Positions 1,291 to 58,327 are shown, counted from the stretch's first letter. The stretch: DNA of 61,987 bases from an uncultured Candidatus Saccharibacteria bacterium (GCA_964603475.1 CAZRVG010000001.1:1-61987); one strand, 5' to 3'. Program-made: numbers and translations. Notes: generated from the sequence alone by a model not told the origin.

Positions 1291-1354
1291 TGTTGAAGTT
1301 GTTGAAGTTGTTGAAGTCAAACTTCAACAAGCGTGTTGAAGTTTGACTTCAACA
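1291..1354. repeat. REP-like inverted doublet, family B (TGTTGAAGT-CAA-ACTTCAACA / agcg / its reverse complement), preceded by two extra TGTTGAAGT half-units
   Basis: 21-nt units at 1309-1329 and 1334-1354 are exact reverse complements. Confidence 0.9.
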
Positions 1355-1382
1355 TAAAACCGTTAAATTCAAATGCTATTGA

Positions 1383-1421
1383 AGGGGTCTAACCCCTGCG
1401 ATTACACAGGGGATAGACCCC
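1383..1421. repeat. REP-like imperfect inverted doublet, family C (GGGGT-CTA-ACCCC ... GGGGA-TAG-ACCCC)
   Basis: ggggtctaacccctg versus caggggatagacccc, one mismatch. Confidence 0.7.
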
Positions 1422-1430
1422 AAAATACCA

Positions 1431-2342
1431 ATGAAATTGTTCACGATTAAAAACCTGTTAATCGCCGCGATCATTTGCTGTGCCGCAATCGGCATGGCAA
1501 TTTTTGCGTTGCTTTCTTCGCAAAAAAAAGAACCGGTCAAAGAGCCCGCCAAGCCCGAACAAAAAATTGAAGAACCCGCAAAAATCGCGGAGCCGGAAAT
1601 AGCGAAACATAAAATAATCGGCTATTCGGCGCAAAACCGACCCATTGAATCCCACACCTTCGGCACCGGAGAAAAATTATTGGTTTTTGTGGGCGGAATT
1701 CATGGCGGATATGAATGGAACAGTTCGCTTTTGGCTTGGGAATTTATTGATTACTTCGAAAAAAATCCCAAATCAATCCCCGAAAATTTATCCGTGGCGA
1801 TAATTCCCGCGCTCAATCCCGACGGATTGGCAAAAATCACCGGCAAAGACGGAAGGTTTACTATTGCCGACATTCCCGAGGGAAATAATGAAACCGGCAG
1901 ATTTAACGCCAACAATGTGGATCTAAACCGCAATTTTGACTGCAACTGGCAACCCAAAGGCCTTTGGCGGCAAAAAGAAGTGAGTGCCGGCACCGCGCCG
2001 TTTTCCGAACCCGAAAGCAAAGCGATCCGCGATTTTGTTTTGCAAAACAATCCCGCGGCGGTTCTTTTTTGGCACAGCCAATCAAACGCGGTCTACGGCT
2101 CAATGTGCAACAACGACATGATGCCCGAAACCCGCGTGATTTTGAACGCCTACGCCAACGTTTCGGGATATGCGGCCGTGGACACTTTTGACAATTATCA
2201 AATAACGGGCGACGCCACCGACTGGCTCGCGTCAATCAACGTCCCCGCAATCAGCGTGGAACTTTCCACCCACAACACCATTGAATGGACAAAAAACCTC
2301 GCCGGCATTACCGCCCTTTTTAATTATTATAAAAACAAATGA
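1431..2342 (+). CDS. Membrane-anchored M14 zinc carboxypeptidase (MpaA-like subfamily possible)
   Basis: GGIHGGYE, NPDG, RFNANNVDLNRNF, FWHS (Zn His), ISVEL (catalytic Glu). Confidence 0.88.
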   Translation: MKLFTIKNLLIAAIICCAAIGMAIFALLSSQKKEPVKEPAKPEQKIEEPAKIAEPEIAKHKIIGYSAQNRPIESHTFGTGEKLLVFVGGIHGGYEWNSSLLAWEFIDYFEKNPKSIPENLSVAIIPALNPDGLAKITGKDGRFTIADIPEGNNETGRFNANNVDLNRNFDCNWQPKGLWRQKEVSAGTAPFSEPESKAIRDFVLQNNPAAVLFWHSQSNAVYGSMCNNDMMPETRVILNAYANVSGYAAVDTFDNYQITGDATDWLASINVPAISVELSTHNTIEWTKNLAGITALFNYYKNK

Positions 2343-3742
2343 AAATCACTTTTTGGGGCGCGGCGCGAAACGTTACCGGGTCAAAACATCTAATAGAAAC
2401 CGGCGGATTCAAACTTTTGCTTGATTGCGGATTTTATCAAGGCAGAAGGACCGACGCCAACCAGCAAAACCGAACTTTGCCGTTTGCCGCCGACAACGTG
2501 AACGCCGCAATTTTGTCGCACGCGCATTTGGATCACTGCGGCACTCTGCCGGTTTTGGTAAAAGACGGCTTTGCCGGAAGAATATATTGCACTCCGGCCA
2601 CTGCCGATATCGCCGAATATATTTTGATGGATTCGGCCAATATCCAAAAGCACGACTGCGAATATTTCAATTCCCACGTCTCGGAAAAAGAAGCGATAAC
2701 CCCCATCTATACCGAAGAAGACGTGCAGCGGGTAATCAGCCGTTTTGAAACCGTGGATTATTTTTCATCCACGGGCGAATGGACGAACATCAATGAAAAT
2801 ATCCGCTTTAAGTTTTATGATGCCGGCCACATTTTGGGCGCGGCGGCGGTTTTGCTGGAAATAAAAGAAAATGGCACAACAAAAACTTTATGTTTTTCCG
2901 GCGACCTGGGACGCGACGAACTGCCGATATTGCGCGCCCCCGAGCCCATTCAAGAAAGCGCGCAAACTCTGATAATGGAATGCACCTACGGCAACCGCAC
3001 GCATCAACCAATGCCGCAAGTGTTTGACAAGGTAAAAGACATCATCAAAACCGCCCTGCGCAAAAAAAGCAAAATAATCGTGCCCGCGTTTTCTCTGGGA
3101 AGAACGCAAGAGTTGATTTATATTCTGCATCTGTTAATCAAACAGAAAGCAATTCCAAAACTGCCGATATATATTGACACGCCGCTGGGTGACAAGATTA
3201 CTAAGATTTTTCCCCGCTATGTTGATCTTTTTGATGATAATTTCAAAAAAGAATTCGGGGATAACGGCTATTGGGCGTTTAACTTTGACAATTTGAAATA
3301 TATCCAATCAACCGCCGAATCAAAATCGCTCAACGGCAAAAATGGGCCGTTTATCGTTATCGCCGGATCGGGAATGTGCGAAGGCGGCCGCGTTTTGCAT
3401 CACCTAAAAAACAATATCGGCAATGCAAACAATATTGTTTTAATCACCGGCTTTCAGGCCGCAAACACTCTGGGGCGAAAAATTTTGGAAAAGCAAAGCC
3501 CCGTTAAAATATTCGGCCGGGGGTATGACGCGCGCGCCAAAATAATGGTGCTAAACGAACTAAGCGCTCACGCCGACCAACAAGATTTGCTAAATTACGC
3601 CAAAAGCATCAACGGATTAAAAAATCTCTTTTTGGTGCACACCGAACCGCCCCAAGCTCAAGCCTTCGCCGAATTGGCGCAAAAATCCCTCCCCGCCATT
3701 TCAGTAAATATCCCCGAATTTTCCCAATCTTTTAACCTGTAG
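2339..3742 (+). CDS. MBL-fold beta-CASP metallo-hydrolase (Ysh1/RNA-processing family)
   Basis: LSHAHLDHCG, AGHILG, FSGDLG, MECTYG, GSGMCEGGR, SAHAD, LVH motifs. Confidence 0.92.
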   Translation: MKITFWGAARNVTGSKHLIETGGFKLLLDCGFYQGRRTDANQQNRTLPFAADNVNAAILSHAHLDHCGTLPVLVKDGFAGRIYCTPATADIAEYILMDSANIQKHDCEYFNSHVSEKEAITPIYTEEDVQRVISRFETVDYFSSTGEWTNINENIRFKFYDAGHILGAAAVLLEIKENGTTKTLCFSGDLGRDELPILRAPEPIQESAQTLIMECTYGNRTHQPMPQVFDKVKDIIKTALRKKSKIIVPAFSLGRTQELIYILHLLIKQKAIPKLPIYIDTPLGDKITKIFPRYVDLFDDNFKKEFGDNGYWAFNFDNLKYIQSTAESKSLNGKNGPFIVIAGSGMCEGGRVLHHLKNNIGNANNIVLITGFQAANTLGRKILEKQSPVKIFGRGYDARAKIMVLNELSAHADQQDLLNYAKSINGLKNLFLVHTEPPQAQAFAELAQKSLPAISVNIPEFSQSFNL

Positions 3743-3791
3743 GTATTAAAAATAACATTTAATCGCAAACATTTACCGAGTGCTTGCATTT

Positions 3792-3855
3792 TAAGGTCAT
3801 ACCTTGACGATTATCCCGAGGCTTTGCGAGGGATAATTGGCAAGGTATGACCTTA
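3792..3855. repeat. Long hairpin / REP-like doublet, family E (AAGGT-CAT-ACCTT ... AAGGT-ATG-ACCTT)
   Basis: Perfect 15-bp IR at 3792-3806/3841-3855 plus an inner attatccc/gggataat stem. Confidence 0.85.
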
Positions 3856-3947
3856 TTAAACTTGTATTTTGGATTTATTTTTATCATCAATTGATGACCG
3901 CTAATATTATAATCCAGTGGAGTATAAAAAATTTGCGTAATCATATC

Positions 3948-3981
3948 AAAATGATACGATTAATGTATGCAAATGATACGA
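3948..3981. promoter_or_regulatory. Direct repeat aaatgatacga x2 upstream of the SdpI-like gene; candidate operator
   Basis: Copies at 3948-3958 and 3971-3981. Confidence 0.4.
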
Positions 3982-4000
3982 AAATTAATAATCTAAAAAT

Positions 4001-4636
4001 ATGAAGAAGAAATTTGTTTGGGGGGGGATTGTGGCGGCGGGTTTTGCGGCAAGTGCCTGGTTTTATCCGCAAATACCCGAGATTATGGCCACGCATTGGG
4101 GAGTTGACGGTCAGGCAAATGGATATATGAATAAGTTTTGGGGATTGTTTTTACTGCCGATAATTTTGACGGCCATCATTGGACTAATGCTGATTGTTCC
4201 CAAAATTGATCCGCTGAAACAAAACATTGCCAAGTTCCGCGGTTATTATGACAATTTCATTTTGTTTATCGCCGTGTTTTTGCTTTATATTCACGCCTTA
4301 ACCATCGCTTGGAACATGGGTTTTGAATTTGATATGACTAAATCGATTATTCCGGCAATGGCGGCGATTTTTTGGCTTGCCGGAATTTTGATGGAAAAAT
4401 CAAAACGCAATTGGTTTGTCGGCGTGCGCACACCTTGGACAATTTCCGACGATAATGTTTGGAACAAAACCAACAAATTGGGCGCAAAAATTTTCAAAAT
4501 TTTTGCCGTTGCCGGCTTATTGATAATGTTTTTGCCCGCCGTATATTTCATGTGGCTGATTTATGTCCTCATCGCCGCCTCAATCTATCTGATAATTTAT
4601 TCCTATCTTCTCTGGCGCAAAACGAGTCGCGGTTAA
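4001..4636 (+). CDS. SdpI/DUF1648 family immunity membrane protein
   Basis: PEIMATHWGVDGQANGY and RNWFVGVRTPWT motifs, multiple TMs. Confidence 0.88.
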   Translation: MKKKFVWGGIVAAGFAASAWFYPQIPEIMATHWGVDGQANGYMNKFWGLFLLPIILTAIIGLMLIVPKIDPLKQNIAKFRGYYDNFILFIAVFLLYIHALTIAWNMGFEFDMTKSIIPAMAAIFWLAGILMEKSKRNWFVGVRTPWTISDDNVWNKTNKLGAKIFKIFAVAGLLIMFLPAVYFMWLIYVLIAASIYLIIYSYLLWRKTSRG

Positions 4637-4766
4637 CGGACATTCCAACATTCTCAAGAATGTGAGAATGTTCGCCAAATTATTCTAGCAAAATAAAAAC
4701 GGGGGGTGACCCGTTTTTTAATGTATATACATTTGTACGTGTTTGAATACGATTTAAATACGCACC

Positions 4767-4964
4767 TCATTCAAAGAAAAATATATCTTCAATTTTTGCA
4801 TTCAAAACACGGGCAATATCATAGGCGAGTTTTAGTGACGGTACGTATTTGCCTTGTTCCAAAAATACAATTGTTTCACGCCGCACGCCGACAAACTGAG
4901 CCAATTCTTCCTGTGTCATATTTTTTTGGGCGCGGCATTCTTTTATCTTCGTAAAAAATTTCAT
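4767..4964 (-). CDS. XRE-family HTH transcriptional regulator (COG1476 type)
   Basis: [32 protein letters not shown]. Confidence 0.92.
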
Positions 4965-5338
4965 TTTTTGCTTTGAAAATATTTAAACAAAAGCGACTGG
5001 AAAATCATCAATCCACAAGCCGAATATACCAAAACTTGCGCAATCGGCTCAAAAAAAGAATTACTTTGACGCATCGCCATAAGCACCATACCTGCCAACG
5101 CAGCGCCCATCGCATAGACGGCCAACGTCCAGCGAGCAGCATCGCCGGCGTTTTTGTAATCTCGTTCGTCAGCTAAAACGCCTTCAACTCGTTTTTTCAC
5201 GCCGAACATCACGATTGCCGCGGTAATAGCGGCAACAATCGGCAAAATATAGTTACCGTGGACAACCGAAGCTGAACAAATTCCGGCTAAAATCATTACA
5301 AAAAATATTCGAAAAATTTTATATGTTTTTTGTTTCAT
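4961..5338 (-). CDS. DUF2178-like membrane protein
   Basis: 4 TMs with a central DERD motif; overlaps the start of the XRE gene. Confidence 0.7.
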
Positions 5339-5383
5339 ATGTTTGTTTTTTTGTTATTTTTAGTTTTGCACCTTTATATTCTT

Positions 5384-5403
5384 ATGTTAGATTATTCTAA
5401 CAT
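5384..5403. promoter_or_regulatory. Perfect palindrome ATGTTAGA-ttat-TCTAACAT; candidate XRE operator
   Basis: 8-bp arms directly upstream of the DUF2178-XRE operon. Confidence 0.6.
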
Positions 5404-5437
5404 ATTTGTCAATAGCGGCGAGAAACAATACTAACAC

Positions 5438-5465
5438 TTGCCCAAAATTGGAGGTTTGGTATAAT
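5438..5465 (+). promoter_or_regulatory. sigma70-like promoter TTGCCC-N16-TATAAT
   Basis: Sequence match upstream of 5541. Confidence 0.55.
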
Positions 5466-5540
5466 CCAATCAAAGAAAAGGGATGGTTAATTTGTAGTAA
5501 TGTTAAAAGGTCATTTAATTAATCTTAACAAAATAACCAA

Positions 5541-6701
5541 ATGCCAAAACACAATGATGTTTTTTCTTTGGAAGACCTAAAAAGACTAGCCAAACATCAA
5601 GGCCAAAGCCCTTGTGTTTCTTTGTACATGCCCGCTCATAAAACAGGCAGGGAATTGCGCCAAAATCCGGTACGCTTTAAAAATCTGGTTAAAAAAGCGG
5701 CGGAGTATTGTCAGGCTCAAGGAATCCGCGTCGATGAAGCCAAAGATATGTTGGCCCCCCACAAAAAATTGCTGGAAAATCCGCTTTTCTGGCAGAAGCA
5801 AAGCGACGGGCTGGCAATTTTTGCCACTCCAAGAATTTTTGAAGTTTTTCGTTTACCGATAAAATTTGCCGAACTTGCCGCGGCGGGCTCGGCGTTTATT
5901 TTCAAGCCGCTTTTTTTCTATTTAAGCGAATACGGAAAATTTTATCTTTTACAACTCACCAAGAATCGCGTCAAGCTTTATCAAGGCTCAATCGAGAGTA
6001 TTTCCGAAATTGAATGCCCCGAACTGCCTCAAGATTTGGCAAGCGCTCTATGGTACAAAGATTACGAAAAACAATTACAATTGCACCACGGAGGCAAATA
6101 TAAAGAAGGAAGTACTATTTTTCACGGGCACGGAGCGGGGCGCGATGATCTCAAAATTCGGATTGCTCGCTACCTGCGCCATGTGGATAAAAATCTGGCA
6201 AAATGCATTAAAGACAAGAATACGCCCTTGGTAATCGCCAGCGTGGATTATTTTCTGCCCATTTGGCGGCAGGTGAGTTCCTATCCCAACATTATGAGCC
6301 AGGCTTTGCCGGGAAACACCGAAAATATCAATGAGGAAAAACTGCGCGAAGACGGCTGGAAAATTGCTCGCGAATATTATGGCGCGGCAAAAGCGAAGGC
6401 AATCGAAAAATGCGCCGACGTTATGAAAACGCCGCAGGGGTCATATGTCCCTCAAGATATTATTAAGCTTTCCTGGCAGGGAAAAGTCGGCGAACTGCTG
6501 GCGCCTTTCGGAAAGCAAATATGGGGCAAATTTAATCGCAAAACGGGAAATGCCGAATTGCATATAAAACAGGAGCCCGACGACATTGATCTTTTGAGTT
6601 TGGCGGTATTTTTCACGTTTTTACACAACGGCAAAGTTTATGTAGTAAACGCCGATGAAATACCGCAAAAAAACAAACTGGTTGCGATATTACGGAAATA
6701 A
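5541..6701 (+). CDS. Bacterial archaeo-eukaryotic release factor family protein (baeRF3/7-like)
   Basis: PCVSLYMP, RQNPVRFKNL, FWQKQSDGLAIF, HGHG, PLVIAS, GKVGELL pattern. Confidence 0.82.
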   Translation: MPKHNDVFSLEDLKRLAKHQGQSPCVSLYMPAHKTGRELRQNPVRFKNLVKKAAEYCQAQGIRVDEAKDMLAPHKKLLENPLFWQKQSDGLAIFATPRIFEVFRLPIKFAELAAAGSAFIFKPLFFYLSEYGKFYLLQLTKNRVKLYQGSIESISEIECPELPQDLASALWYKDYEKQLQLHHGGKYKEGSTIFHGHGAGRDDLKIRIARYLRHVDKNLAKCIKDKNTPLVIASVDYFLPIWRQVSSYPNIMSQALPGNTENINEEKLREDGWKIAREYYGAAKAKAIEKCADVMKTPQGSYVPQDIIKLSWQGKVGELLAPFGKQIWGKFNRKTGNAELHIKQEPDDIDLLSLAVFFTFLHNGKVYVVNADEIPQKNKLVAILRK

Positions 6702-6722
6702 TTAGTAAAATCAATTAAAAAA

Positions 6723-7088
6723 ATGTTAAAAATCATCGCCGAAAAAAATATCTTAACCCCCGACGCAGTCAAAGAAAAAATAATGTTAAAATTAAACGCA
6801 CTAGAGAGGCTAGTTTCAAGCGTCGGAGAGCCGAATGAAATGCGCGTGCAATTGGAAAAAATGAATTATTTTGAACCCAAGGGAAATGTTTTCCGATGTG
6901 AAATCAATGTTCGAATTCCGGGAAAGCTTTTGCGCGCAGAAAGCAAAAAAACCGACATTATCGCCGCCGCGGCCGATGCCAAAAACACGATGGAGCGCCT
7001 GTTGAAGCAATACAAGGAAAAACAATTTCAAAATGCGAAAAGCGACATGCGCGCCATCAAAAAAGAAATCAAAAATAACCCCTTATAA
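6723..7088 (+). CDS. Ribosome hibernation factor HPF/RaiA-like (S30AE domain)
   Basis: Length and pattern VKEKIMLKL...FRCEINVRIPGKLLRAES...MERLLKQYKEK. Confidence 0.75.
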   Translation: MLKIIAEKNILTPDAVKEKIMLKLNALERLVSSVGEPNEMRVQLEKMNYFEPKGNVFRCEINVRIPGKLLRAESKKTDIIAAAADAKNTMERLLKQYKEKQFQNAKSDMRAIKKEIKNNPL

Positions 7089-7094
7089 CCCGCC

Positions 7095-7127
7095 AAAAAA
7101 ACGCCGTACCGCAAGCGGCGTTTTTTT
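7095..7127. terminator. Bidirectional intrinsic terminator
   Basis: A-tract, cgccg stem, T-tract between convergent genes. Confidence 0.85.
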
Positions 7128-10393: not shown

Positions 10394-10434
10394 AATAAAT
10401 TGCGTGGGTCTGACCCACGCAAAAAAACATATGA
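10394..10434 (+). repeat. Left ~40-bp direct repeat containing the family A palindrome TGCGTGGGT-CTG-ACCCACGCA and ending at the transposase ATG
   Basis: aataaattgcgtgggtctgacccacgcaaaaaaacatatga. Confidence 0.92.
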
Positions 10435-11210
10435 GCATTAAAGTTGAACCATTTACGGTAGGCGATTATATCCATGCGTATAATTGCGGCAACAAAAAAG
10501 CGCAAATATTCTTTGACAAGTCGGATTATTGGCGGTTTTCGTGGTGCCTAAGATTTTTTAATGACCAAAGAAGTATTTATGATTTTGCCAAATGCTTAAC
10601 CGATTTAGTCTATGAACAAAAAGAAATCTTGCAAAAATTGCGTGGGTCTGACCCACGCAGAAAGGCACCCTATCTGGATGGACGAAATACTTTTGAATGG
10701 CGAACCGAAGAATGGGGAGAGCAACAGCCATTAGTTCAAATAATATCTTATCATTTGTCGCCAAATCACTTTCATTTGTTTTTAAAAGAGATTATTTCTG
10801 GCGGTATCAGTAAATTTATGCAAAAAATCGGCGGGGGATATACTGTTTACCGAAACTTAAAAAGCCATGAAGCTGGAAGAATATTTCAAGGCAGCTATCG
10901 CGGGAAGACAATAAAGGATGAAAGATACTTTCAATATTTAGACGCGTATATTCAGGTTTTCAATGCTTTTGAGCTTTTTGAGGGCGGAATTTTAAACGCC
11001 CTCAACCATTTTGACGAAGCGTTTCAATTCGCGCTGGATTATCCGTTCTGTAGTCTGGGCGAATCATTCGGAATAAGAAATTTGGGAATTGTTAATAGGA
11101 GCTCTTTCCAAGAGAAATTTCCAAATTTAGAAACATACAAAGAATTTTGCCGCGACGCATTATTAACCCGGAGTGTCCGTGAATTTTTGGGTAAATTAAC
11201 CCTGGAATAA
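10431..11210 (+). mobile_element. REP-associated tyrosine transposase-like (RAYT / Y1 HUH) gene; likely start is ATG 10431
   Basis: YIHAYNCGN...IF..DY.RF, YHLSPNHFHL (HUH), IFQGSY, AYIQ (catalytic Tyr); flanked by palindromes. Confidence 0.85.
10639..10659. repeat. Family A palindrome inside the transposase CDS (encodes LRGSDPR)
   Basis: tgcgtgggtctgacccacgca, identical to 10400-10421 core. Confidence 0.92.
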
Positions 11211-11245
11211 ATTGCGTGGGTAAGACCCACGCAAAAAACATATGA
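11206..11245 (+). repeat. Right ~40-bp direct repeat (loop AAG) ending at the DUF2207 ATG
   Basis: aataaattgcgtgggtaagacccacgcaaaaaacatatga. Confidence 0.92.
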
Positions 11246-12957
11246 AAAAAATATTGGAAATAATAATGATTTGGGGAATAATTATTTTTTTGCCGGTTTG
11301 GGCGCAGGCAAGAGATGCAGGCCAAATTACGGATTGGTATGTTAGGGACTTTCAAAGCACGATTACGGTCAATGACGACGCATCGCTTTTGGTTGAAGAA
11401 AAAATTATTGCCGATTGCGGGAATTTGCCGGACAAGCACGGAATTTTTCGGATTTTGCCCGTGCAAACAAGAACCGAAAGCGGAATCATCAAAACTCCGA
11501 TTGAATTGGTTTCCATCACTGATTTTTCCGGCAATAAAATTACATATTCAACAAGCGTTGACAATTTTAACCATACGATAACCTATAAAATCGGCGATCC
11601 GAATATCACCATAAAAGGAGAAAACGAATATAAAATCACATATTTGGTAAAAAACGCGATCCGGGCGCGAAGCAACGATTTTGACGAATTGTATTGGAAT
11701 CTGTCCGGCAATTTTTGGGACATTGAAATTGATAATTTTGGCGCCGAGATTATTTTCCCGGCAGAAATAAATCGAAACAATTCCGAAGTTTATTTATATA
11801 GCGGCGGTTTGGGCGAAAAAGAAAATCTGTTGGCGAATTATCAATGGAAAAGCGACAATATTTTGCGCGTTTATTCCAACAAAATTCTAATGCCGCGGCA
11901 GGGGACTACCGCGTCAATAATATTCCCAAAAGGAATTATCGCTTCGCATAAACCAAATCTTTTTGAAGCGTATGGCGATTATTTGTGGTTTTTGATTCCG
12001 GTATTGGTTTTTATTTTCAGTTTTTTGATTTGGAATAAACACGGCAAAGACCCGCGGATTGATAAAACGATAATTCCGGAATTTGAAATTCCCCAAAATT
12101 TAACGCCAATGGAAATGGGAATGTTAGCGCAAAACGGAGGATTTAACGATAAGTTTATCACCGCGACAATCGTTGATCTGGCAGTTAAAAAATACATCAT
12201 CATTGAAGAAATTCCCAAAAAGGGAATATTCGGCAAACAGGATTTTTACTTAAAAAAAATCTCCGCCGATTTTAGCGAGCTTGGCAATCCCGAAAAAACG
12301 CTGATTGATAAAATATTTGTCGCAAAGCAAGAGGTTTTATTGTCAAAATTAAAAAATAATTTTTACAAAGATTTGCCGTCAATCAAAAAATCCGCCGCGA
12401 CAGCGCTGGAAAACAAAGACCTCATTTATCCCGGCGGACAAGTGTTAAAAATTACTTTTATAATAATCGGAATGACAGTTCTTGGTTTTGGAATCTTTAT
12501 GTTAAATTTTGGATTTTATTGGATTATTGCAATCTTGCTATCAGCGATAATTTTGGAATTTTTCGGAATTTTAATGCCCAAACGAACCCCGCAAGGCGCC
12601 GAGTTAAATTGGCGGATAAAGGGTTTTAAATTATATATGGAAACCGCTGAAAAATATCGCGCGCGATTTTATGAAAAAGAAAACATTTTTGAAAAATTTC
12701 TGCCTTACGCGATAATGTTTGGCATAACAAAACTTTGGATCAAAAAAATGGAAGAAATCTATGGCAAGGAATATTTTAACAATTATCATCCAATCTGGTA
12801 TGCCGGCGCGATAACAAGCTTTAACGCCGATAGTTTTTCCTCGCAAATAAACACGCTATCTTCGGGCATTGCCTCCAATATCGGCACGGCATCCGGCGCG
12901 CACGGCACCGGCGGTGCCGGCGGAGGGGGTGGTGGCGGAGGGGGCGGCGGCTGGTAA
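11242..12957 (+). CDS. DUF2207 domain membrane protein (YciQ-like)
   Basis: Signal peptide, HGIFR, DELYWN, KRTPQG, FEKFLPYAIMFG, C-terminal GGGGGGGW. Confidence 0.92.
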   Translation: MKKILEIIMIWGIIIFLPVWAQARDAGQITDWYVRDFQSTITVNDDASLLVEEKIIADCGNLPDKHGIFRILPVQTRTESGIIKTPIELVSITDFSGNKITYSTSVDNFNHTITYKIGDPNITIKGENEYKITYLVKNAIRARSNDFDELYWNLSGNFWDIEIDNFGAEIIFPAEINRNNSEVYLYSGGLGEKENLLANYQWKSDNILRVYSNKILMPRQGTTASIIFPKGIIASHKPNLFEAYGDYLWFLIPVLVFIFSFLIWNKHGKDPRIDKTIIPEFEIPQNLTPMEMGMLAQNGGFNDKFITATIVDLAVKKYIIIEEIPKKGIFGKQDFYLKKISADFSELGNPEKTLIDKIFVAKQEVLLSKLKNNFYKDLPSIKKSAATALENKDLIYPGGQVLKITFIIIGMTVLGFGIFMLNFGFYWIIAILLSAIILEFFGILMPKRTPQGAELNWRIKGFKLYMETAEKYRARFYEKENIFEKFLPYAIMFGITKLWIKKMEEIYGKEYFNNYHPIWYAGAITSFNADSFSSQINTLSSGIASNIGTASGAHGTGGAGGGGGGGGGGGW

Positions 12958-25421: not shown

Positions 25422-25685
25422 AGTATCATTTAATCATTTAATCATTAAAGCATTTAATCATCAAAAACTACAATGCCCGAACAATTAAAAGAATCCTTTT
25501 TAAAATTTATTATTTATTTCCAAACAACATCCTATTTATATCCCAAATTCTCCCTTTTGTCAAAAATTTCATTTAATGTTTGCCGGAAACGAACGCGCAT
25601 TAGGTAGAAAATTATAAATCAGCCGTTTGTCATAGCTTTTTTAACAAAGATAGAAAAACTGAAAATTATTTGCTATGCTGGCATT

Positions 25686-26735
25686 ATGAAAATCACGATC
25701 ATAGGAGGCGGGGTCTGCGGGCTCTATTTGGCAAAAAATTTGGCGGAAAGGAACCATAAAATAACAGTTTTCGAGAAGAAAAAAACCATCGGAAAACTTT
25801 GCTGTTCGGGATTATTTTCCGCGCGGCTCTTTGATTTTGTTCCCGAAGCACGCGGGTTGGCAACAAACCAAATAAATCGCTGTATTATTAATTTTCCCAA
25901 GAAAAAAATAAATTTAAAATTTCGCCCGCCGTTTTTTGTCATTGACCACGCCCGGCTGGATTTACTTGTCGCCGCTTTAGCGACACGGGCGGGCGCAAAC
26001 ATTCGCATCGGTCAAAACATTGATTTTGCAAGATTGGAAACATTATCCGCCGAATACGACCGCATCATCGGTTGCGACGGCGCCCTATCAACCATCCGCC
26101 AATATCTAATAAGTGGAAATCAAACTTCCTGCGCGGGTCAGACCCACGCAAAATTGCGTGGGTCTGACCCGCGCAAAAATAACCGGCCGAATTTTATGCT
26201 GGGAATTCAAGGGTTTGAACAAAAAGCGGATGATTCTGATTTTGTTGAAACTTGGGCGACGAAAAACGGGTTTTTGTGGCGGATCCCGCGCAGCGAAGAT
26301 GTTGAATGGGGGATTATGGAAGAGCCGGATGTCGCCCGCAGGCTCTTTGATGAATTTATCGCGCAAAAGAACATAAAGCTAGAAGATCTAAGATCGGCAA
26401 TTATCCCGCAAGGATTAACAATTCCCCAAAACAAAAAGATCACTTTGTGCGGCGACGCGTCGGGACTGACCAAGCCATGGTCCGGGGGCGGCGTCATTTG
26501 GAATTTAACCCAAGCCGATCTTCTCTTGAAAAATTTCCCCAATTTTATACAATACAGGAAAGAAGCGAAGCGTTTTTTTGGATTAAGACTGTTTGCGGGC
26601 AATTTTGCCAAAAAATGCGCTTATTTTACCGGATTCAATCTTCCTTGGATAATCCCCGGAGATTTCAATCTTGACGGCGATTACTTGTTAAAATTTAAAA
26701 GAAACGATAATGGACAATCAAGAAACTCTGCCTGA
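25686..26735 (+). CDS. FAD-dependent oxidoreductase, geranylgeranyl reductase-like, carrying an in-frame palindrome insertion
   Basis: GGGVCG, KLCCSG, IIGCDGALS, LCGDASGLTKPWSGGG. Confidence 0.85.
   Translation: MKITIIGGGVCGLYLAKNLAERNHKITVFEKKKTIGKLCCSGLFSARLFDFVPEARGLATNQINRCIINFPKKKINLKFRPPFFVIDHARLDLLVAALATRAGANIRIGQNIDFARLETLSAEYDRIIGCDGALSTIRQYLISGNQTSCAGQTHAKLRGSDPRKNNRPNFMLGIQGFEQKADDSDFVETWATKNGFLWRIPRSEDVEWGIMEEPDVARRLFDEFIAQKNIKLEDLRSAIIPQGLTIPQNKKITLCGDASGLTKPWSGGGVIWNLTQADLLLKNFPNFIQYRKEAKRFFGLRLFAGNFAKKCAYFTGFNLPWIIPGDFNLDGDYLLKFKRNDNGQSRNSA
26130..26175. repeat. Family A REP-like inverted doublet inside the reductase CDS
   Basis: tgcgcgggtcagacccacgca-aaat-tgcgtgggtctgacccgcgca, exact reverse complements. 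Confidence 0.93.
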
Positions 26736-31890: not shown

Positions 31891-32045
31891 TTCTTATCAA
31901 CACTAAAAGGTTGAATTTTGGGCGAAAACAGGCAATAATCAAGAGGAAATATAAACATACAAACATTTAATCATATAAACACAAACTCGCGGATCGGTTT
32001 TTGCTGTGATTAAATGATTAAATGGTTCTATGATTAAATGATTCT

Positions 32046-33113
32046 ATGAGCTTGCATATCGGAATCGTGGGATTGCCCAATGTGGGCAAATCCACTTTAT
32101 TTTCCACCATCACCAAAAAACAGGCCGAATGCGCCAATTATCCTTTTTGCACCATTGAGCCGAATATCGGCATGGTGCCGGTTAGCGACGAGCGCGTTGA
32201 CAAGCTGGCCGATTTAACCAAATCGGCAAAAAAAATTTTTGCCACCGTGGAATTCGTGGATATCGCCGGATTGGTAAAAGGCGCCGCGCAAGGGGAGGGA
32301 TTGGGCAACAAATTTTTGCAAAACATCCGCGAAACCGACGCGATTTTGTATATTCTGCGCGCGTTTGCCAATGAAAAAATCGTCAACACGCAAGATTCAA
32401 TTGATCCTTGGCGCGACAAAGAAATTTTAGACACCGAATTGGCGTTAAAAGACTTGGAAACCGTATCAAAGCGGCTTGAATCCGTGGAAAGCGAAGTACG
32501 AGGCAATAAACCCGGCGCCAAAGAAGAAATGCAGGCCTTGCAAAAAGCAAAGCCGCTTTTGGAAGAGGGGAAAATATTATCCGAAATTGAATTCAACGAT
32601 GAAGAAAAAAAGAATATCAACCGTTTACAATTACTCACAATGAAACCCCGCCTTTATGTTCTAAACGGCAAAATTGGCGAAATAGGGGATAACATCATCA
32701 AAAATTTCAAAGAGAAAAATTTGCCCCATATTGCCATTGATATTCTTGGCGAAAACGAAGGCGAAGGACTCACCGAGCAAGAAAAAAAGGACTTTGACCT
32801 GCCTTCGGGGAAAAATTTGGATTTACTGATAAAAAAATCTTACGAACTTTTGGATTTAATCACCTTTTTCACCACCGGCCCCGACGAAACCCGCGCATGG
32901 ACGCTAAAAAGGGGAAGCGCTACTCCAAAAGCCGGAGGCGTCATCCACACCGATTTTGAAAAAAAATTCATCCGCGCCGAAGTCATTCATTGGCAAAAAC
33001 TGATTGAAGCCGGCGGCTTCACTCAAGCGCGCGAAAAGGGACTGATCGCCACGGTAGGCAAGGATTATATCGTCCAAGACGGCAATGTAGTCGAAATCAA
33101 AGCCGGAGCATAA
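32046..33113 (+). CDS. ychF: Redox-regulated ATPase YchF
   Basis: GIVGLPNVGKSTLF, NYPFCTIEPN, DIAGLV, GVIHTDFE. Confidence 0.97.
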   Translation: MSLHIGIVGLPNVGKSTLFSTITKKQAECANYPFCTIEPNIGMVPVSDERVDKLADLTKSAKKIFATVEFVDIAGLVKGAAQGEGLGNKFLQNIRETDAILYILRAFANEKIVNTQDSIDPWRDKEILDTELALKDLETVSKRLESVESEVRGNKPGAKEEMQALQKAKPLLEEGKILSEIEFNDEEKKNINRLQLLTMKPRLYVLNGKIGEIGDNIIKNFKEKNLPHIAIDILGENEGEGLTEQEKKDFDLPSGKNLDLLIKKSYELLDLITFFTTGPDETRAWTLKRGSATPKAGGVIHTDFEKKFIRAEVIHWQKLIEAGGFTQAREKGLIATVGKDYIVQDGNVVEIKAGA

Positions 33114-33727: not shown

Positions 33728-33756
33728 AAAACCGCCCATGGAAGGCGGTTTTTTAC
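33728..33756. terminator. Bidirectional terminator
   Basis: aaaaccgcc-catggaa-ggcggtttttt. Confidence 0.8.
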
Positions 33757-40799: not shown

Positions 40800-40808
40800 G
40801 GTTTTTCG

Positions 40809-40854
40809 TGTTGAAATCAAACTTCAACAAGATTGTTGAAGTTTGATTTCAACA
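40809..40854. repeat. Family B REP-like inverted doublet upstream of the murD start
   Basis: tgttgaaatcaaacttcaaca-agat-tgttgaagtttgatttcaaca, exact reverse complements. Confidence 0.92.
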
Positions 40855-40891
40855 CTTTGATTTTAACACAAATTGAGGCATAAAAAAAATG

Positions 40892-52576: not shown

Positions 52577-52660
52577 ATTTTTTAACAAAATATAATATTT
52601 TCAACGCTATCAAATTAGCACGCAAGCGGTCAAAAATAAACCCCTTCCCTCGCGGGTAAA

Positions 52661-54334
52661 TCATTTACCGGTTTGAGCAGGTTCGCGATCATCCATGGGC
52701 AATTTAATGATAAAAGTGCTCCCCTTGCCCCAGCCTTCGGATTCCACGCGGATTTCACCACCATTGGTTTTTATCATTTGTGCCGCTAAATACAACCCAA
52801 TACCCTTGCCGTTGATATTAACGTTTTTCGCTTTCGTGCCGCGTTCAAAAACTCGCTCAAAAAGATCTTGCTGCTCTTTTTCATCCATCCCGATGCCGCT
52901 ATCGGCCACCGACACGCGCAAACAATTATCGCAAACACTCATCGAAACCAACACTCCGCCCCTATCGGTATACTTGATCGCGTTGTCAACGATATTATAA
53001 ATCGCCTCGCGGATACCATGGATATCGATATTGATCAAAGGCGTCGGCGCATTGGGCTTTTTAAACCGCAAGTATATTTTTTTTTCTGCGGCATTCTTTT
53101 TTAAATCCGCAATAACTTCGGAAACCAACCCAACCACATCGGCAGGCTCTTTGGCCGCCATCTCCTTGTTCATTTGAAAATGCGCCACATCCAAAAGATC
53201 GTTAATCAACCGAATCAGTTTTTGTGTTTCCTTCAAGGACGTACCGATCTTTTCTTTGGCCTTGGCCGAAATCCGTCCATAATCACCCTCGTTTATCATG
53301 CTCAAATAACCCTGCACCACCGATAGCGGACTGCGCAAATGATGCTGGGTGGAAAGCAAAAATTGCGTCTTGGCCGCATCAATGCGCCTTAAATCTTCGG
53401 CCAACCTCTCCGCCTCCCCGCGCAACTCCCGCTCCCTCGCCGCCACCAATTCCGCCTCCTCCCGCCTCTTGCTCTCTTTGAGGGTTGTTCTAATAAGACA
53501 ATAACCGAAGAAAGAAAACAAAATTAGAACCCCGGCCGAAATAATTTTTAGAACAGTTGTCGGCATTAAAAAAAATTGGGTTGCCAGAATAATACCCATC
53601 AGTCCAACCAATATCTCGGTCAAAATAACCCTAACGTCAAAGAGATGATATTTAAGAATCGCCAAAGCGATTATCGTCACAGCAACAATTTCAGCCCAAT
53701 AAGCTCCTATGGGATTAATATTTAAATTATATGCAGGTAAAAAAGCATACGCCCCCAAATTTAATATTATAAACGCCACAAATAAAAATTTTACCGATTT
53801 GATATTTTCTTTTTCATTATTAGTTCCAAAATTATCGCGGCATTTTAAAAATAAATATCGATATATTTCAAATAAAAATAAAAATATATAGGCTGAATAA
53901 AAAACTAAAAATAAATGGTGGAAAATACCCGCCTGCGTGTGATACCCCCATTCATAATAATACAAACCAGAAATAAAATTATCCGTCCTGCTCAGAACAA
54001 GAAACAAGAAAGAGAGAAAGTAGCCAAAAAGAAGTTTGAATTTATTTTTAATCTCCCTGCGGGTAAAAATAAGGCCGAAATGATACATCAACACCGGAAC
54101 AAAAACAACTCCGACATAAACCATTCTATCCCAAAAAATAATATCCTTCTCACATCCGCTAACATACATCATGTGTGTTGACAAAAGCCAATTTGACATT
54201 GCAACACAAAAAACTAGAAAAATAATATTTAATTTTTTTTGAATATTTTTCCAAAAAACAAAAACGCCCAGCACTATCATTAACAAGCCGCTGATTAACG
54301 CAGAATATGAATTAACAAGCAATAATATATCCAT
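52661..54334 (-). CDS. Sensor histidine kinase with a multi-TM (HisKA_7TM-like) N-terminus
   Basis: H-box QHHLRSPL, NIVDNAIKY, DSGIG, GKGIGL, GKGSTF. Confidence 0.92.
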   Translation of the reverse strand: MDILLLVNSYSALISGLLMIVLGVFVFWKNIQKKLNIIFLVFCVAMSNWLLSTHMMYVSGCEKDIIFWDRMVYVGVVFVPVLMYHFGLIFTRREIKNKFKLLFGYFLSFLFLVLSRTDNFISGLYYYEWGYHTQAGIFHHLFLVFYSAYIFLFLFEIYRYLFLKCRDNFGTNNEKENIKSVKFLFVAFIILNLGAYAFLPAYNLNINPIGAYWAEIVAVTIIALAILKYHLFDVRVILTEILVGLMGIILATQFFLMPTTVLKIISAGVLILFSFFGYCLIRTTLKESKRREEAELVAARERELRGEAERLAEDLRRIDAAKTQFLLSTQHHLRSPLSVVQGYLSMINEGDYGRISAKAKEKIGTSLKETQKLIRLINDLLDVAHFQMNKEMAAKEPADVVGLVSEVIADLKKNAAEKKIYLRFKKPNAPTPLINIDIHGIREAIYNIVDNAIKYTDRGGVLVSMSVCDNCLRVSVADSGIGMDEKEQQDLFERVFERGTKAKNVNINGKGIGLYLAAQMIKTNGGEIRVESEGWGKGSTFIIKLPMDDREPAQTGK

Positions 54335-54344
54335 TTGATAAAAT

Positions 54345-55382
54345 TTATTCGCGAAGGATCAAATTCCCGTTTAGTTTTTTACCAAAACTGTGATATATAT
54401 CGATTTTAAATTGATCGGAATATTTATCCATTAATTTCAGCATCTTTCTTGCTAATTCAGGTGTTGTAAATCCAACATAATTATTTTTATTTTCATCCAT
54501 TGCCAAAAGCATCGTTTCGGCCAAGCAAGCATATGCTTGATGCCTTTTAAGACCAATATTAACGCCAAAATCAATTGATGGCACATTAACTATGCCGCCG
54601 TCAATAATAGTGGCATCCGGCCTTTTTTTGAGTAATTCAGGGGAAGTATTACGAGGCTGGGTTATGTCATAAATAATTGCATTTTGTTTCAAATGGTCCG
54701 CTCTTATTAATTGATCCATCGAAGATGTTGCAATTACGGAAATATCGGCATATTTGATTGATGCGGTATCTGTTTCAATCCGCACTTTTGGATATGAAAA
54801 AAATCTTTTTTCTAGTTTCTTGCTTTTTTGCGGCCTATCAACAAGCAAAACATTGAGACCTCTTTGAATTAATAACTCGGCTACGCCTTGGCCGATGGAG
54901 CCGGCCGCACCAACAATGGCGACTTGAGCTTCGGCAGTATTAATTTTTTTAATTTCAATAATTTTTTCCACCGCCCTAAAAACAACACCCGTGGTAAGGG
55001 AATTGCCACTGGTAATACTGACCCCTTCAACCAATCCCACCAAATCCCTACCACCATGAGTCACGGAAGCAGTGAACTCTCCCAATCCAATAACTTTTGC
55101 TCCCAAATCTTTCATCATTTTAATCGCTTTGACGAGTCTGACAATAACTATTTTTTTCGGCAAAGTTAAAATTTGCTCCCCCAAAAGAGGAATCCAGACA
55201 ATCCATCCGATCAATTCGGTTTTATTATTTTCAAATTTCACTCTTCCTGCCTTAATCGGCCCAAGAAAAGTAATGATTTTTTTCAAAATAAATTCGGGAA
55301 ATAACAAAAAAAACGGCGATACCTTGCCCATATCCTCCCTTGCTGAATGACGTGGATGAACTAAAAACGCAAATTTATTCAT
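54345..55382 (-). CDS. NAD(P)-binding reductase, COG5322 / acyl-ACP reductase-like
   Basis: FAFLVHP start, GLGEFTAS, TSGNSLT, GAAGSIG, DITQPRN, ACLAETMLL. Confidence 0.72.
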   Translation of the reverse strand: MNKFAFLVHPRHSAREDMGKVSPFFLLFPEFILKKIITFLGPIKAGRVKFENNKTELIGWIVWIPLLGEQILTLPKKIVIVRLVKAIKMMKDLGAKVIGLGEFTASVTHGGRDLVGLVEGVSITSGNSLTTGVVFRAVEKIIEIKKINTAEAQVAIVGAAGSIGQGVAELLIQRGLNVLLVDRPQKSKKLEKRFFSYPKVRIETDTASIKYADISVIATSSMDQLIRADHLKQNAIIYDITQPRNTSPELLKKRPDATIIDGGIVNVPSIDFGVNIGLKRHQAYACLAETMLLAMDENKNNYVGFTTPELARKMLKLMDKYSDQFKIDIYHSFGKKLNGNLILRE

Positions 55383-55664
55383 TGTTTAATAAAATTTTAA
55401 AATAAAATATTGATAAATTGGCGGATTACGGGGAGGTATTCAAAAATTGCCCATACCAAGATCGCGAAAAAACCGACAATCAAAATAAAATCTATCAATT
55501 TGTTCATAGAGAATACTGTTTGTTTTGAAACGTATTATTTTTATTATACTCTAAATTTTATCGACTTCAAATTTATTCAAAAAAAACAACGCAAGCTTTT
55601 ATTCCGCGCCGCCAAATTTGGTCAAGGTGAAACCTTGCCACACTTTTTTCCGCCCGGCGCCGCC

Positions 55665-57962
55665 TTAAAGCTTGATTCGCTCCAAGCCGTTAATCAGTAA
55701 TACCGCGATCGCCTCATCAATGTTATTCCTGCCGGCCATTCTCTGGATTTCTTTAATCACCAAATCAATGTGCTTGTTGATGATTTTTTCTCGCGCTTTT
55801 ATCATTGCCATTTTGGCGTTGGCCGGCAATTTGCGGGCTTGTGTTTTTTCCAACGCCTCAAACTGATTCCGCAGAATTGCAAACTGCGCCGCCAAAATAA
55901 TTTTTTGCGGCGTTTTGATTAACCCCCGCGCGGCAAAGCGGTCAAAATCGCTTATCAATTCGTCAATGGTGAAAACATCGTCTTGGGCGAATTTTTGCTC
56001 ATATTCGCCATCGCCGCCGCCGTCAATTTCCAGCACGGTTTCTTGCTCTCCGATTTCCAATATCCCGCGCAAGTTTTTATCAACTGGAATGGCGAAAAAC
56101 ACGCGCGGTTCTTGGGGAATGTCGTTTTCAATCGCTTGGGCGGTTAAAGTGAATGTTCCCTGCCCGGTGCCTTGCAAATCAATTTGGTATTCTTGGCCGT
56201 TTCCCTGCGGCAGATAGACATACTTTTTCTCGCCGTCAACATCAAATGCCGCGCCGGGGATCTCGTTTTTGGGACCGACATTGCCCACGTCCTCAATGAC
56301 ATTGCCAAAATTATCGGTAATTTTTATCGCCAGCGGGCTTTCAATTTTAATCGTGGTGCCATAGAGTTTGCATAATTTGTCATTGGCCAGCAATTGCGCG
56401 CGGGTGATAATTTTGTTGTTGGGAACGGCGATATTGCCGCCGGTGATTATGCTGGCAATCTTTTGGCGCGCGCCGTCAAAAGAAGGCATTTGCCCGTGCT
56501 TTGTTTCGGGCGCGTAGAAAGTGTTGGCATCGCTTGCCAAGGCAAGATTTGCCGATTCAAACGGCACCGTGTCATCGCCGTTGGCGATGGCAAAAAAATC
56601 ATAGCGGATGTGAACCCCGTCGGCATTAACCCAATCGCTTAATGTTGAAAAAACCGCCGATTTGCATCCGGCGATGTTGTAGCTGTCAATGCCTTTGGCC
56701 AAAAAATCATCGGCGGTCATATCATCCAAATCCGAATGCAAGCCAATCGCCCGATTGGTTGCGGTGTTGTTTGTCCCCGCTCCCGCCAAATACAAGCGGG
56801 TTTGGAGATAATCCAACTCCTCGGTTTGGTTAATTCCCCATATTGCCGCGGGCTTGACTTTGCGTATCCAAGAGCCCTTTTTGGAAAAGTATTGTTCGCT
56901 GGGTAAAAGATCATAGGCCGCGGGCATATTTTGCGCGATCTTTTTTAGCTCCGCGGGGTTAAGGCCAAACACTCCAAAATCCGTGCCGCTGATTAACGCC
57001 CTGCCCGCCAGCGGCGCGCCCAAATTGGGCACCCCCGCGAATACCAGCTTGCCGATTTTGGGTTGGCCATAATCGGCGACATATTTTTTGGCAATCAACC
57101 CGCCCAAGCTGTGAGCAATCACATCAACCTTGCCCGTGGGAGAAATTTCGGCCAGCCGGGCAATCCGCTTCGCCAGCAAATCGCTGTTGGCAATGTCGCG
57201 CCCGGTATAATTATCCGGTTTTGGATAAATCCCGCTGGCGCCATACCGCCAATCATAAGGAAAAGTATAAAAAGTCTGATCGTCGGCCCCCTCCTCGGCA
57301 ACATACCCCTGCCCCTCAAACTCATCAATCAACCCCTGCGAATATTCATATAAAACAATTTCATTATTTCCTACAATTTTAACTTTTTTATCAATTACAC
57401 CAAGCAATGAAGTATCAAATAACGGCTTAAGATGATCTCCGAATGCCAATGGATCCATAAACTCATCATCATTAAATGGATTAATCATCTTTTCGATATC
57501 CACCCATAATAATTCATTATCTCGCTTAATCTCCGTGCTTAACAGCCCCGGCACAAATAAAACCGGCGTTTTGGACAGAATTTTGGCATCCGGCGCCGGA
57601 TCAAAAAATTCGGCGGGCGGGGCCACCAAATCAATGGTGATTTCTTCTTGAGAATGGCAAAGCACCGCCTCATCGGTTGGCAAGCGGAAAACCGCCTCAC
57701 TCGTATCAAGAAAATCATCGGGAGGCAATTGCAAATCGATTGTTGCATCCTCGTCGCTATGACAAAGCACTGCTTCATCGGTTGGCAAGCGGAAGTTCGC
57801 CTCGTCAGCATCAAGCAAATCGTTAGGCGGCATCACCAATGCTATCGTTGTGGTGGCACTGGCGCCTTCAATGATAATTTCGGGCAAATCCTGCGCCCAA
57901 GTGCGCGCGAACAAAAACACCGCAATTGGCAAAAATATAAATAAAGGAAAATGCTTTTGCAT
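55665..57962 (-). CDS. Secreted alpha/beta-hydrolase (LCAT/PGAP1 lipase-like) with N-terminal acidic repeats
   Basis: Signal peptide; VLFVPG, FPYDWR, IAHSLGG, GVPNLGAP, GDDTVP, H in TKHG. Confidence 0.85.
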   Translation of the reverse strand: MQKHFPLFIFLPIAVFLFARTWAQDLPEIIIEGASATTTIALVMPPNDLLDADEANFRLPTDEAVLCHSDEDATIDLQLPPDDFLDTSEAVFRLPTDEAVLCHSQEEITIDLVAPPAEFFDPAPDAKILSKTPVLFVPGLLSTEIKRDNELLWVDIEKMINPFNDDEFMDPLAFGDHLKPLFDTSLLGVIDKKVKIVGNNEIVLYEYSQGLIDEFEGQGYVAEEGADDQTFYTFPYDWRYGASGIYPKPDNYTGRDIANSDLLAKRIARLAEISPTGKVDVIAHSLGGLIAKKYVADYGQPKIGKLVFAGVPNLGAPLAGRALISGTDFGVFGLNPAELKKIAQNMPAAYDLLPSEQYFSKKGSWIRKVKPAAIWGINQTEELDYLQTRLYLAGAGTNNTATNRAIGLHSDLDDMTADDFLAKGIDSYNIAGCKSAVFSTLSDWVNADGVHIRYDFFAIANGDDTVPFESANLALASDANTFYAPETKHGQMPSFDGARQKIASIITGGNIAVPNNKIITRAQLLANDKLCKLYGTTIKIESPLAIKITDNFGNVIEDVGNVGPKNEIPGAAFDVDGEKKYVYLPQGNGQEYQIDLQGTGQGTFTLTAQAIENDIPQEPRVFFAIPVDKNLRGILEIGEQETVLEIDGGGDGEYEQKFAQDDVFTIDELISDFDRFAARGLIKTPQKIILAAQFAILRNQFEALEKTQARKLPANAKMAMIKAREKIINKHIDLVIKEIQRMAGRNNIDEAIAVLLINGLERIKL
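57632..57848 (-). repeat. Intragenic 35-aa (105-bp) tandem repeat, ~2.3 copies
   Basis: FRLPTDEAVLCHS occurs twice, 35 aa apart. Confidence 0.85.
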
Positions 57963-57973
57963 AGTTTTATATA

Positions 57974-58285
57974 TTAAAATTGGATATTTCTAACTGCGTA
58001 AAATAAATATAAAAGATACCCCAATTTTAAAAAACAAAACGATAAAAATAGTAAAATAAACAAATAGAAAATATTTTTTATTTTCTTAAAATTATAAATA
58101 CTAAATAATAATCCTAAACAGCCAAGAAACTGTAAAAGCACTACAATGGTCAGTAAAATTCTATTACCAATATTAAATATTTCTTTATCAATACTCCACA
58201 ATCCAAGTATTGGGCTCCACAAAATTTCGGGGACCAAAAACATCGCCCCGAAAATTGCCAGCCATATTTTTTGCTTTTTTGTCAT
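57974..58285 (-). CDS. Hypothetical 3-TM membrane protein, very AT-rich
   Basis: Hydrophobic ORF directly upstream of the lipase-like gene. Confidence 0.65.
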   Translation of the reverse strand: MTKKQKIWLAIFGAMFLVPEILWSPILGLWSIDKEIFNIGNRILLTIVVLLQFLGCLGLLFSIYNFKKIKNIFYLFILLFLSFCFLKLGYLLYLFYAVRNIQF

Positions 58286-58306
58286 ATTGTTTTGTTATTT
58301 TTTGTT

Positions 58307-58327
58307 TGGTGAGGTTTGACCTCACCA
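58307..58327. repeat. Family D palindrome TGGTGAGGT-TTG-ACCTCACCA
   Basis: Perfect 9-3-9 palindrome. Confidence 0.9.

Follow-up and report, generated by a model that had tools for sequence, protein, structure and literature searches.

Palindromic repeats in a 61,987-nucleotide (nt) stretch of an uncultured Candidatus Saccharibacteria genome (GCA_964603475.1, CAZRVG010000001.1:1-61987; "the window" refers to this whole stretch) are probably REP-like units (repetitive extragenic palindromes) and REPIN-like doublets of a vertically inherited, single-copy clade of Y1 HUH nucleases in Patescibacteria, which resembles the RAYT/TnpAREP proteins (REP-associated tyrosine transposases). The initial annotation had listed five palindrome families, A to E, with different arms and a shared RRGT-NNN-ACYY core, and had read them as a REP system of a type particular to the candidate phyla radiation (CPR). 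Genomes of Patescibacteria measure about 1 Mb, a size at which one would not expect tolerance of selfish or domesticated repeats. To our knowledge, work on REPs and RAYTs has been almost confined to Proteobacteria and a few other large-genome phyla.

We scanned the generic pattern TGN3RRGT-N3-ACYYN3CA, whose use had been proposed in the initial annotation, over the whole window, with 100 dinucleotide-preserving shuffles as a control. There were 8 matches in the window and 0 in the 100 shuffles. Core-bearing perfect hairpins with stems of at least 8 pairs numbered 6, compared with a mean of 0.40 in 200 Markov shuffles, no single one of which gave more than 2. Families A, B, and D consist of palindromes of 21-23 nt, perfect or compensated, for which the shuffled sequence gives an expectation of none, and a chance origin of the palindromes was ruled out by the shuffles. 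The repeat unit of these three families is therefore real, but its length, first given as 21 nt throughout, ranges from 21 to 23 nt, with a 23-nt form of A near the nuclease gene. Family A (TGCGTGGGT-NNN-ACCCACGCA) comprises five units (10401-10421, 10639-10659, 11213-11233, and 26130/26155). The starting positions 10400 and 11212 reported initially are those at which the 23-nt form (TTGCG...CGCAA) begins, and the copy at 11213 has the loop AAG, not CTG. Family B (TGTTGAAGT-NNN-ACTTCAACA) comprises four units (1309/1334 and 40809/40834), and family D is represented by a single unit at 58307-58327.

Families C and E were not accepted as equal in standing to A, B, and D. Core-bearing hairpins with stems of at least 6 pairs numbered 13 in the window and 4.0 in shuffles, a weak excess, so C and E have no significance on the core alone; both are also degenerate. 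Of the five families first claimed, A, B, and D thus stand far above shuffles, while C and E lack statistical independence. C (1380-1421) and E (3792-3855) are nevertheless genuine longer inverted repeats according to an inverted-repeat search and folding. The first unit of C differs by 2 mismatches from the TGCAGGGGT family, which flanks orthologous nuclease genes in two relatives (L005 and L010; L numbers are our labels for compared loci and contigs), and the second unit (GGGGATAGACCCC) has lost its closing G-T/A-C pair. Whether E is part of the palindrome and nuclease system is uncertain. Scans of the window with Rfam, at gathering thresholds, and for tRNAs returned no matches, indicating that the hairpins do not belong to any known RNA gene.

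The three A and B doublets are inverted pairs with 100% complementarity, arms of 21-23 nt, and gaps of 2-4 nt; the exact pairing noted initially was reproduced. In single-stranded form, each of them folds into one long hairpin (z = -7 to -12). At 26130/26155 and 40809/40834, every unit contains one arm mismatch and its partner unit is the exact complement. It is therefore the doublet, not the single unit, that forms the perfect structure. Ahead of the B doublet at 1309, the left arm TTGTTGAAG occurs three times in tandem (1291-1308), and the outermost copy together with an ACGC flank can pair with AAGCGT behind the first B unit, with arms of 15 nt. These tandem copies look like a slippage duplication of one arm.

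Three of the A units accompany a gene at 10431-11210 that encodes a protein of 259 amino acids (aa). The product matched Pfam PF01797 (Y1_Tnp) at 27.2 bits, above the cut-off of 23. Its HUH motif is H113-F-H115, and H113/H115, Y169, Y173, Q175, and N178 are invariant in an alignment of 61 sequences. The top PDB fold match of an AlphaFold model of the protein (pLDDT 88) was 4er8_A, the E. coli TnpAREP with a bound REP hairpin (E = 1.8e-4), followed by the TnpA proteins of ISDra2 and then IS608. Together with the Pfam match, this upholds the earlier assignment to a RAYT-like HUH nuclease. A profile search of PDB starting from the nuclease alignment yielded only marginal matches (ISDra2, E = 0.6). 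The protein also carries a conserved C-terminal helical extension. More than 340 homologues were found, and those with names came nearly all from Patescibacteria/CPR bins; the family is essentially confined to such assemblies, in agreement with the proposed CPR-type system. A tblastn search over the window detected no second Y1 gene, so 10431-11210 is the sole one in 62 kb.

In the window, one A copy lies 9 nt ahead of the ATG of this gene, one lies in frame within the open reading frame (ORF), and one lies 2 nt past the stop codon. This layout recurs in relatives. We compared the best 80 of 239 confirmed relatives, with loci taken from one-genome-per-species assemblies and several more obtained via exact protein look-ups; the titles of the 80 fetched loci are nearly all Patescibacteria lineages or uncultured bins. 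Of the homologous loci, 78 extended far enough to either side of the gene, and among these a perfect hairpin was present upstream in 62, inside the ORF in 55, and downstream in 55, and the same arm occupied at least two of these positions in 54. The internal hairpin always lay 135-235 nt into the nuclease ORF. These counts come from a strict perfect-stem scan and are underestimates, as L009 and L011 seemed empty yet have hairpins that are imperfect or have 7-nt loops wherever copies are expected. Hairpin density reached 1.98/kb within 100 nt of the gene, 9-fold above the 0.22/kb in the other 1.07 Mb.

L006/L007 and L124 have the same gene order as the window (ABC transporter, nuclease, DUF2207), as would be expected of a gene resident at its locus and not of an insertion sequence that hops. 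Across subclades, the internal copy was found in every codon phase (20/11/4). Because it occupies three phases and lies in a low-confidence loop of the model, the pattern suggests that copies inserted repeatedly into the same permissive loop and do not go back to a single ancient event.

The arms of the palindromes change together with the protein. Mean arm identity fell from 0.87 between loci whose proteins exceed 80% identity to 0.73 at 60-80% and to approximately 0.45-0.5 below 60%, and in a Mantel test of arm against protein identity, 0 of 2000 permutations attained the observed correlation. Six genomes contain two or three paralogues, which are about 44% identical within a genome, and a different arm family is found at each paralogue. 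In the closest species genome (CAZFZI01), the orthologue L008 (87% identity) bears the window's A arms. A second paralogue there, L033 (44% identity), has TGTTGAAGT-CAA-ACCTCAACA twice upstream and once downstream, which is the window's B family with one change. The idea of one RAYT per arm family, put forward in the initial annotation, is borne out by these six genomes and by the B arms around L033. Exact copies of D with identical flanks were found in L109, L121, and L139, contigs that carry A as well. In L139, a 41-kb contig, A, B, and D occur together. In that relative, a B doublet (12311-12356) lies in the spacer between the 23S and 5S rRNA genes.

The part of the hairpin that remains constant is its top. 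Counted from the centre, 42 of 43 distinct cognate palindromes have T at position -2; at position -3, 35 have G and 8 have A; 28 have G at position -4; and all 43 have a purine at position -5. The loop fits Y-N-R in 42 of them. The core proposed from the window is therefore a clade-wide signature, which these counts refine to RRGGT-YNR-ACCYY. The feet read TTG or TG, the majority bases at positions -12 to -9 being T, T, T, and G, and about half to two thirds of the cognate palindromes have a TG...CA foot. Such T/TG-rich feet without GT[AG]G agree with the earlier suggestion that hairpin geometry and loop core define the system instead of the GTAG/GATG tetranucleotide. Copies at one gene differ in the middle loop base and in loop orientation.

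Palindromes are also carried inside other genes. The A doublet at 26130-26175 falls within an in-frame insertion of 22 codons (nt 26109-26174, aa 142-163) in an oxidoreductase gene. This 22-residue segment is missing from 14 homologues obtained by a representative-library search and alignment; searching PDB by sequence, with the oxidoreductase as query, had not resolved it. An orthologue with 66% identity has a doublet at the same site whose arms have changed and are still complementary (GCGACGGT), and two further relatives have one or two A units there. Orthologous insertions were located in L088, L132, and L140. In L088 (1152-1679), a contig from a 454-era metagenome, the oxidoreductase orthologue ends 13 codons past the palindrome insertion, at a run of A, and this early stop may be a sequencing frameshift or a genuine truncation.

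A metagenome scan for the exact A palindrome retrieved 58 stretches, about 20 of which come from relatives with 43-47% G+C. In these relatives and the window, 42 of 49 A units are located in open frames of at least 150 aa, mostly as doublets that are translated as CVG[P/R]THA...LRGSDPR. Nearly all six reading frames of family A are open. TGA codons interrupt some frames of families B and D, whose window copies lie between genes. Twelve contigs with 28-33% G+C (L094, L098, L100, L104, L107, L108, L112, L117, L127, L135, L142, and L146) carry the exact A palindrome beside other GC-rich hairpins of the same type (for example GCTTGCGGGGGTCAAGCCCCCGCAAGC and TTGCGTGGGCTAGACCCACGCAA) in AT-rich spacers. 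No Y1 gene was found on these stretches, which apparently represent a separate lineage with the same arms. In contigs with 52-59% G+C, many of them from the human gut (L099, L103, L106, L111, L113-L115, L118, L119, L129, L137, L138, and L144), TGCGTGGGT-NNN-ACCCACGCA is embedded in a larger conserved repeat adjoining TGAAGGGCCATGGCCCTTCA. This repeat looks unrelated, its arms being alike by chance or convergence.

Table 1. Nuclease gene and palindromic features of the window
Feature	Position	Strand	Description
RAYT-like Y1 HUH (IS200-like) nuclease gene, 259 aa	10431..11210	+	Pfam, invariant residues, AlphaFold fold match
Family A palindrome, upstream copy	10400..10422		TTGCGTGGGT-CTG-ACCCACGCAA; ATG of the nuclease gene 9 nt further on
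Family A palindrome, internal copy	10639..10659		In frame in the nuclease ORF; encodes L70-RGSDP-R76; variable low-confidence loop
Family A palindrome, downstream copy	11212..11234		Loop AAG; nuclease stop 2 nt before, DUF2207 ATG (11242) 8 nt after
Family A doublet (REPIN-like)	26130..26175		22-nt arms, 100% complementary; inside FAD-dependent oxidoreductase ORF 25686-26735
Family B doublet	1309..1354		TGTTGAAGT-CAA-ACTTCAACA / TGTTGAAGT-TTG-ACTTCAACA; intergenic, between two M14 carboxypeptidase genes
Two additional tandem B left arms (TTGTTGAAG)	1291..1308		Adjoin the B doublet
Family B doublet	40808..40855		23-nt arms, 100% complementary; ~8 nt ahead of the probable start (ATG, 40799) of a murD-like gene on the minus strand
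Family D palindrome	58307..58327		TGGTGAGGT-TTG-ACCTCACCA; 21 nt ahead of the ATG of ORF 57974-58285 (minus strand)
Degenerate doublet C	1380..1421		Unit 1 = TGAAGGGGT-CTA-ACCCCTGCG
Long hairpin E	3792..3855		26-nt arms, 92% complementary; small AAGGT-NNN-ACCTT palindrome at either outer end

Several observations weigh against a REP and RAYT system. The classical 5' GT[AG]G guide (or CGTC) is not present at the hairpin feet of the 43 cognates. The NCBIfam model NF047646 (REP_Tyr_transpos) gave no match to the window protein, and two homologues of 236-239 aa scored 24-29 bits on it against a cut-off of 80. The tyrosine motif, Y173-IQVF-N178-[P/A], corresponds to Y-x4-N-P and not to the Y-x3-N-P of class 2 TnpAY1 proteins (PMC6006769). 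The window holds no nuclease gene for B or D; for D, tblastn over the window found no partner, and the only Y1 gene in the 58 metagenome stretches was the A orthologue in L124. Extra copies beyond the nuclease locus are modest: the 62 kb contain a single A doublet, at a distance of 15 kb from the gene, and loci of 10-20 kb have 0-4 additional cognate copies each. The compared relatives provided no pair of empty and filled sites at nucleotide resolution. The failure to reach the REP_Tyr_transpos cut-off and the Y-x4-N-P motif thus indicate a divergent clade with an additional C-terminal helical part.

The nuclease gene with its two flanking hairpins might instead be an insertion sequence of the IS200/IS605 type, the scattered palindromes being solo ends or miniatures comparable to MITEs (miniature inverted-repeat transposable elements) or PATEs (palindrome-associated transposable elements). 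The protein family is the same, the fold matches to the TnpA of ISDra2 and IS608 nearly equal the match to TnpAREP, and both gene ends bear hairpins, which in the window belong to a direct repeat of ~38 nt (AATAAAT-palindrome-A6-7CATATG). In addition, the gene context of L005 and L010 is different at 70-75% identity. However, an insertion sequence fits poorly with a single Y1 gene in 62 kb, with same-genome paralogues that share just ~44% identity, and with synteny held in relatives at 81-87% identity. There is no tnpB, and the neighbours are ABC transporter and DUF2207 genes. Both gene ends carry one and the same perfect, symmetric palindrome in place of a left and a right end that are imperfect and distinct. 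The protein is also longer, with 220-260 aa including the C-terminal extension, compared with 125-152 residues in the matched IS608, ISDra2, and IS200 chains. We therefore regard an insertion sequence as quite improbable. Even less probable in our view is a regulatory role in the host, with the palindromes acting as terminators, mRNA-stabilising 3' hairpins, operators, or elements of translation control and lying close to the Y1 gene incidentally or through later co-option. The units at 10401, 11213, 40808-40855, and 58307 do all lie 8-21 nt ahead of start codons, a promoter-like site ends at 10401, and a terminator scan flagged three A copies near the nuclease gene (minus strand, hairpin plus T-rich tail). 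These flagged terminators, however, are antisense to local genes, and the genuine terminator-like hairpins of the window (4695, 23213, and 33728) are of different appearance. Many units are within ORFs and translated, the arms co-diverge with the Y1 protein, and the families are paralogue-specific. Intrinsic terminators in particular were rejected, as the T-rich tails occur solely on the strand antisense to local genes and several units lie inside ORFs. A secondary regulatory effect may still accompany the role of the hairpins as REP-like units.

A further question is whether the nuclease gene is controlled through its internal and flanking copies, which would then serve, for example, autoregulation or programmed rearrangement and would not be by-products of insertion favoured near the gene. 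The constancy of the internal copy, which in 55 of 78 loci lies in the same part of the ORF and has the genome's current arms, speaks for such a role. Its occurrence in three codon phases and its position in a low-confidence model loop speak against it, as do intact genes in which it is absent or decayed (L033; L026, 236 aa; L013, L015, and L022, 240-252 aa). In-frame REPs in subclass 2.4 tnpAREP genes were likewise judged peripheral (PMC6006769). We consider it unlikely that the copies as a whole are control sites; a control function for the internal copy is possible and is not required to explain its presence.

If the palindromes are indeed the REP-like units of this nuclease, we infer hairpin binding, cleavage, a direction of transfer, mobility, and preferential action near the gene, which may be linked as follows. 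Each unit would fold on single-stranded DNA, for example on the lagging-strand template, into a stem of 9-11 bp with a loop of 1-3 nt. The nuclease would recognise the conserved upper stem and loop (RRGGT-YNR-ACCYY) along with lower-stem bases that vary between paralogues, and would then cut the single strand and rejoin it, thereby copying or moving units or doublets. Most of the enzyme's action probably takes place close to its own gene, which would explain copies upstream, downstream, and repeatedly in its own permissive coding loop. Under selection, copies borne by genes would persist only if they are in frame and in tolerated loops. A more far-reaching proposal is a mode of Y1 HUH recognition not previously described, in which the conserved top and the loop of a perfectly symmetric hairpin are read instead of a 5' guide tetranucleotide. 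Loops that flip orientation would then imply cutting or copying through the hairpin, and the in-frame copy in the nuclease gene would be a control or specificity element and not a passenger. We put this forward tentatively, as a conceivable but doubtful extension.

The closest known counterpart is the proteobacterial REP/REPIN-RAYT system of E. coli and Pseudomonas (class 2 TnpAY1, PMC6006769; Bertels and Rainey 2011, PMC3116915), in which a single-copy Y1 HUH gene is likewise flanked by its own palindromes. In both cases inverted doublets fold as one long hairpin, each paralogue has its own family, and inheritance at a fixed locus is apparently vertical. One REP family per tnpAREP has been described in other clades (PMC6006769). 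The CPR hairpins differ in lacking the 5' GT[AG]G, the conserved part being the stem top and loop, and their stems are perfect and only 9-11 bp long, with many copies intragenic and translated. The CPR protein is about 85 residues longer C-terminally and falls under the REP_Tyr_transpos cut-off. The survey of Quentin et al. (2018) was based on complete genomes and did not cover CPR, and it found non-IS tnpAY1 genes mainly in large genomes (PMC6006769), in contrast to the ~1-Mb genomes of the CPR hosts.

Among the surveyed TnpAY1 groups, subclass 2.4 is similar in having REPs in frame inside the tnpAREP gene, as the cognate palindrome is here (PMC6006769). In the CPR protein, however, the insertion is N-terminal to HUH (aa 70-76 against HUH at 113-115) and not between HUH and Y, and the internal copy is present in most clade members, in a taxon outside that survey. 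Subclass 2.6 and class 3 TnpAY1 genes have atypical hairpins without GT[AG]G (PMC6006769), and the flanking hairpins of the CPR genes resemble them in being atypical and in having no GTAG. With the IS200/IS605 elements IS608 and ISDra2, the CPR system shares the catalytic fold and the hairpins at both gene ends, presumably recognised as single-stranded DNA. It differs from them in not being multi-copy, in having no tnpB, in its identical and symmetric ends, in its longer protein, and in its kept synteny. Ogata et al. (2000) reportedly described Rickettsia palindromic elements (RPEs) of ~100-150 bp that lie in frame in protein-coding genes, and we know of no cognate transposase for them. RPEs and the CPR units are alike as in-frame palindromic repeats that add a peptide segment in a small-genome bacterium, but the CPR units measure 21-46 nt and have an identified partner gene.

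Literature searches on REP or RAYT combined with CPR found no description of such a system. New relative to the known REP/RAYT systems are the tiny-genome host group, the perfect mini-hairpins in which a conserved top replaces the 5' tag, the near-universal in-frame copy N-terminal to HUH, the frequent translated copies in other genes, and the longer protein.

Some further features were noted in the window and in one relative. Before ~33.7 kb, the long ORFs of the window are all on the plus strand, and after it all on the minus strand; at that point GC skew, near zero or weakly positive until then, becomes clearly negative. A bidirectional terminator-like hairpin (AAAACCGCC...GGCGGTTTT, 33728-33752) marks this strand-switch junction, which could be one of convergent operons or a replication terminus. 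An overlapping run of TTTAATCAT / ATCATTTAA repeats occupies 25425-25461, in the intergenic spacer that precedes the oxidoreductase gene, and an AT-rich inverted repeat of 35 nt (31949-32039, 83% complementary) lies just ahead of ORF 32046-33113. In Ca. Nealsonbacteria DGGOD1a (CP092821.1; L002, 4519-6537), doublets of TCAGAGGGT-CTA-ACCCTCTGA are located behind the gene of a 4208-aa intein-containing protein, near a bAvd gene, and at the end of a reverse-transcriptase gene. This cassette looks like a diversity-generating retroelement, and the same 20 kb contain at least four other palindrome families.

The nucleases described here form a distinct and widespread clade of Patescibacteria, with 239 confirmed relatives in a one-genome-per-species collection. 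With more than 40 matched pairs of protein and hairpin, in which the core is fixed and the arms vary, they offer a natural series for studying how Y1 HUH enzymes read hairpins. The in-frame LRGSDPR/CVGPTHA segments are a clear example of repeats adding peptides to proteins. As a practical caution for CPR bins from metagenomes, such hairpins interrupt assemblies and cause gene calls to be lengthened or split.

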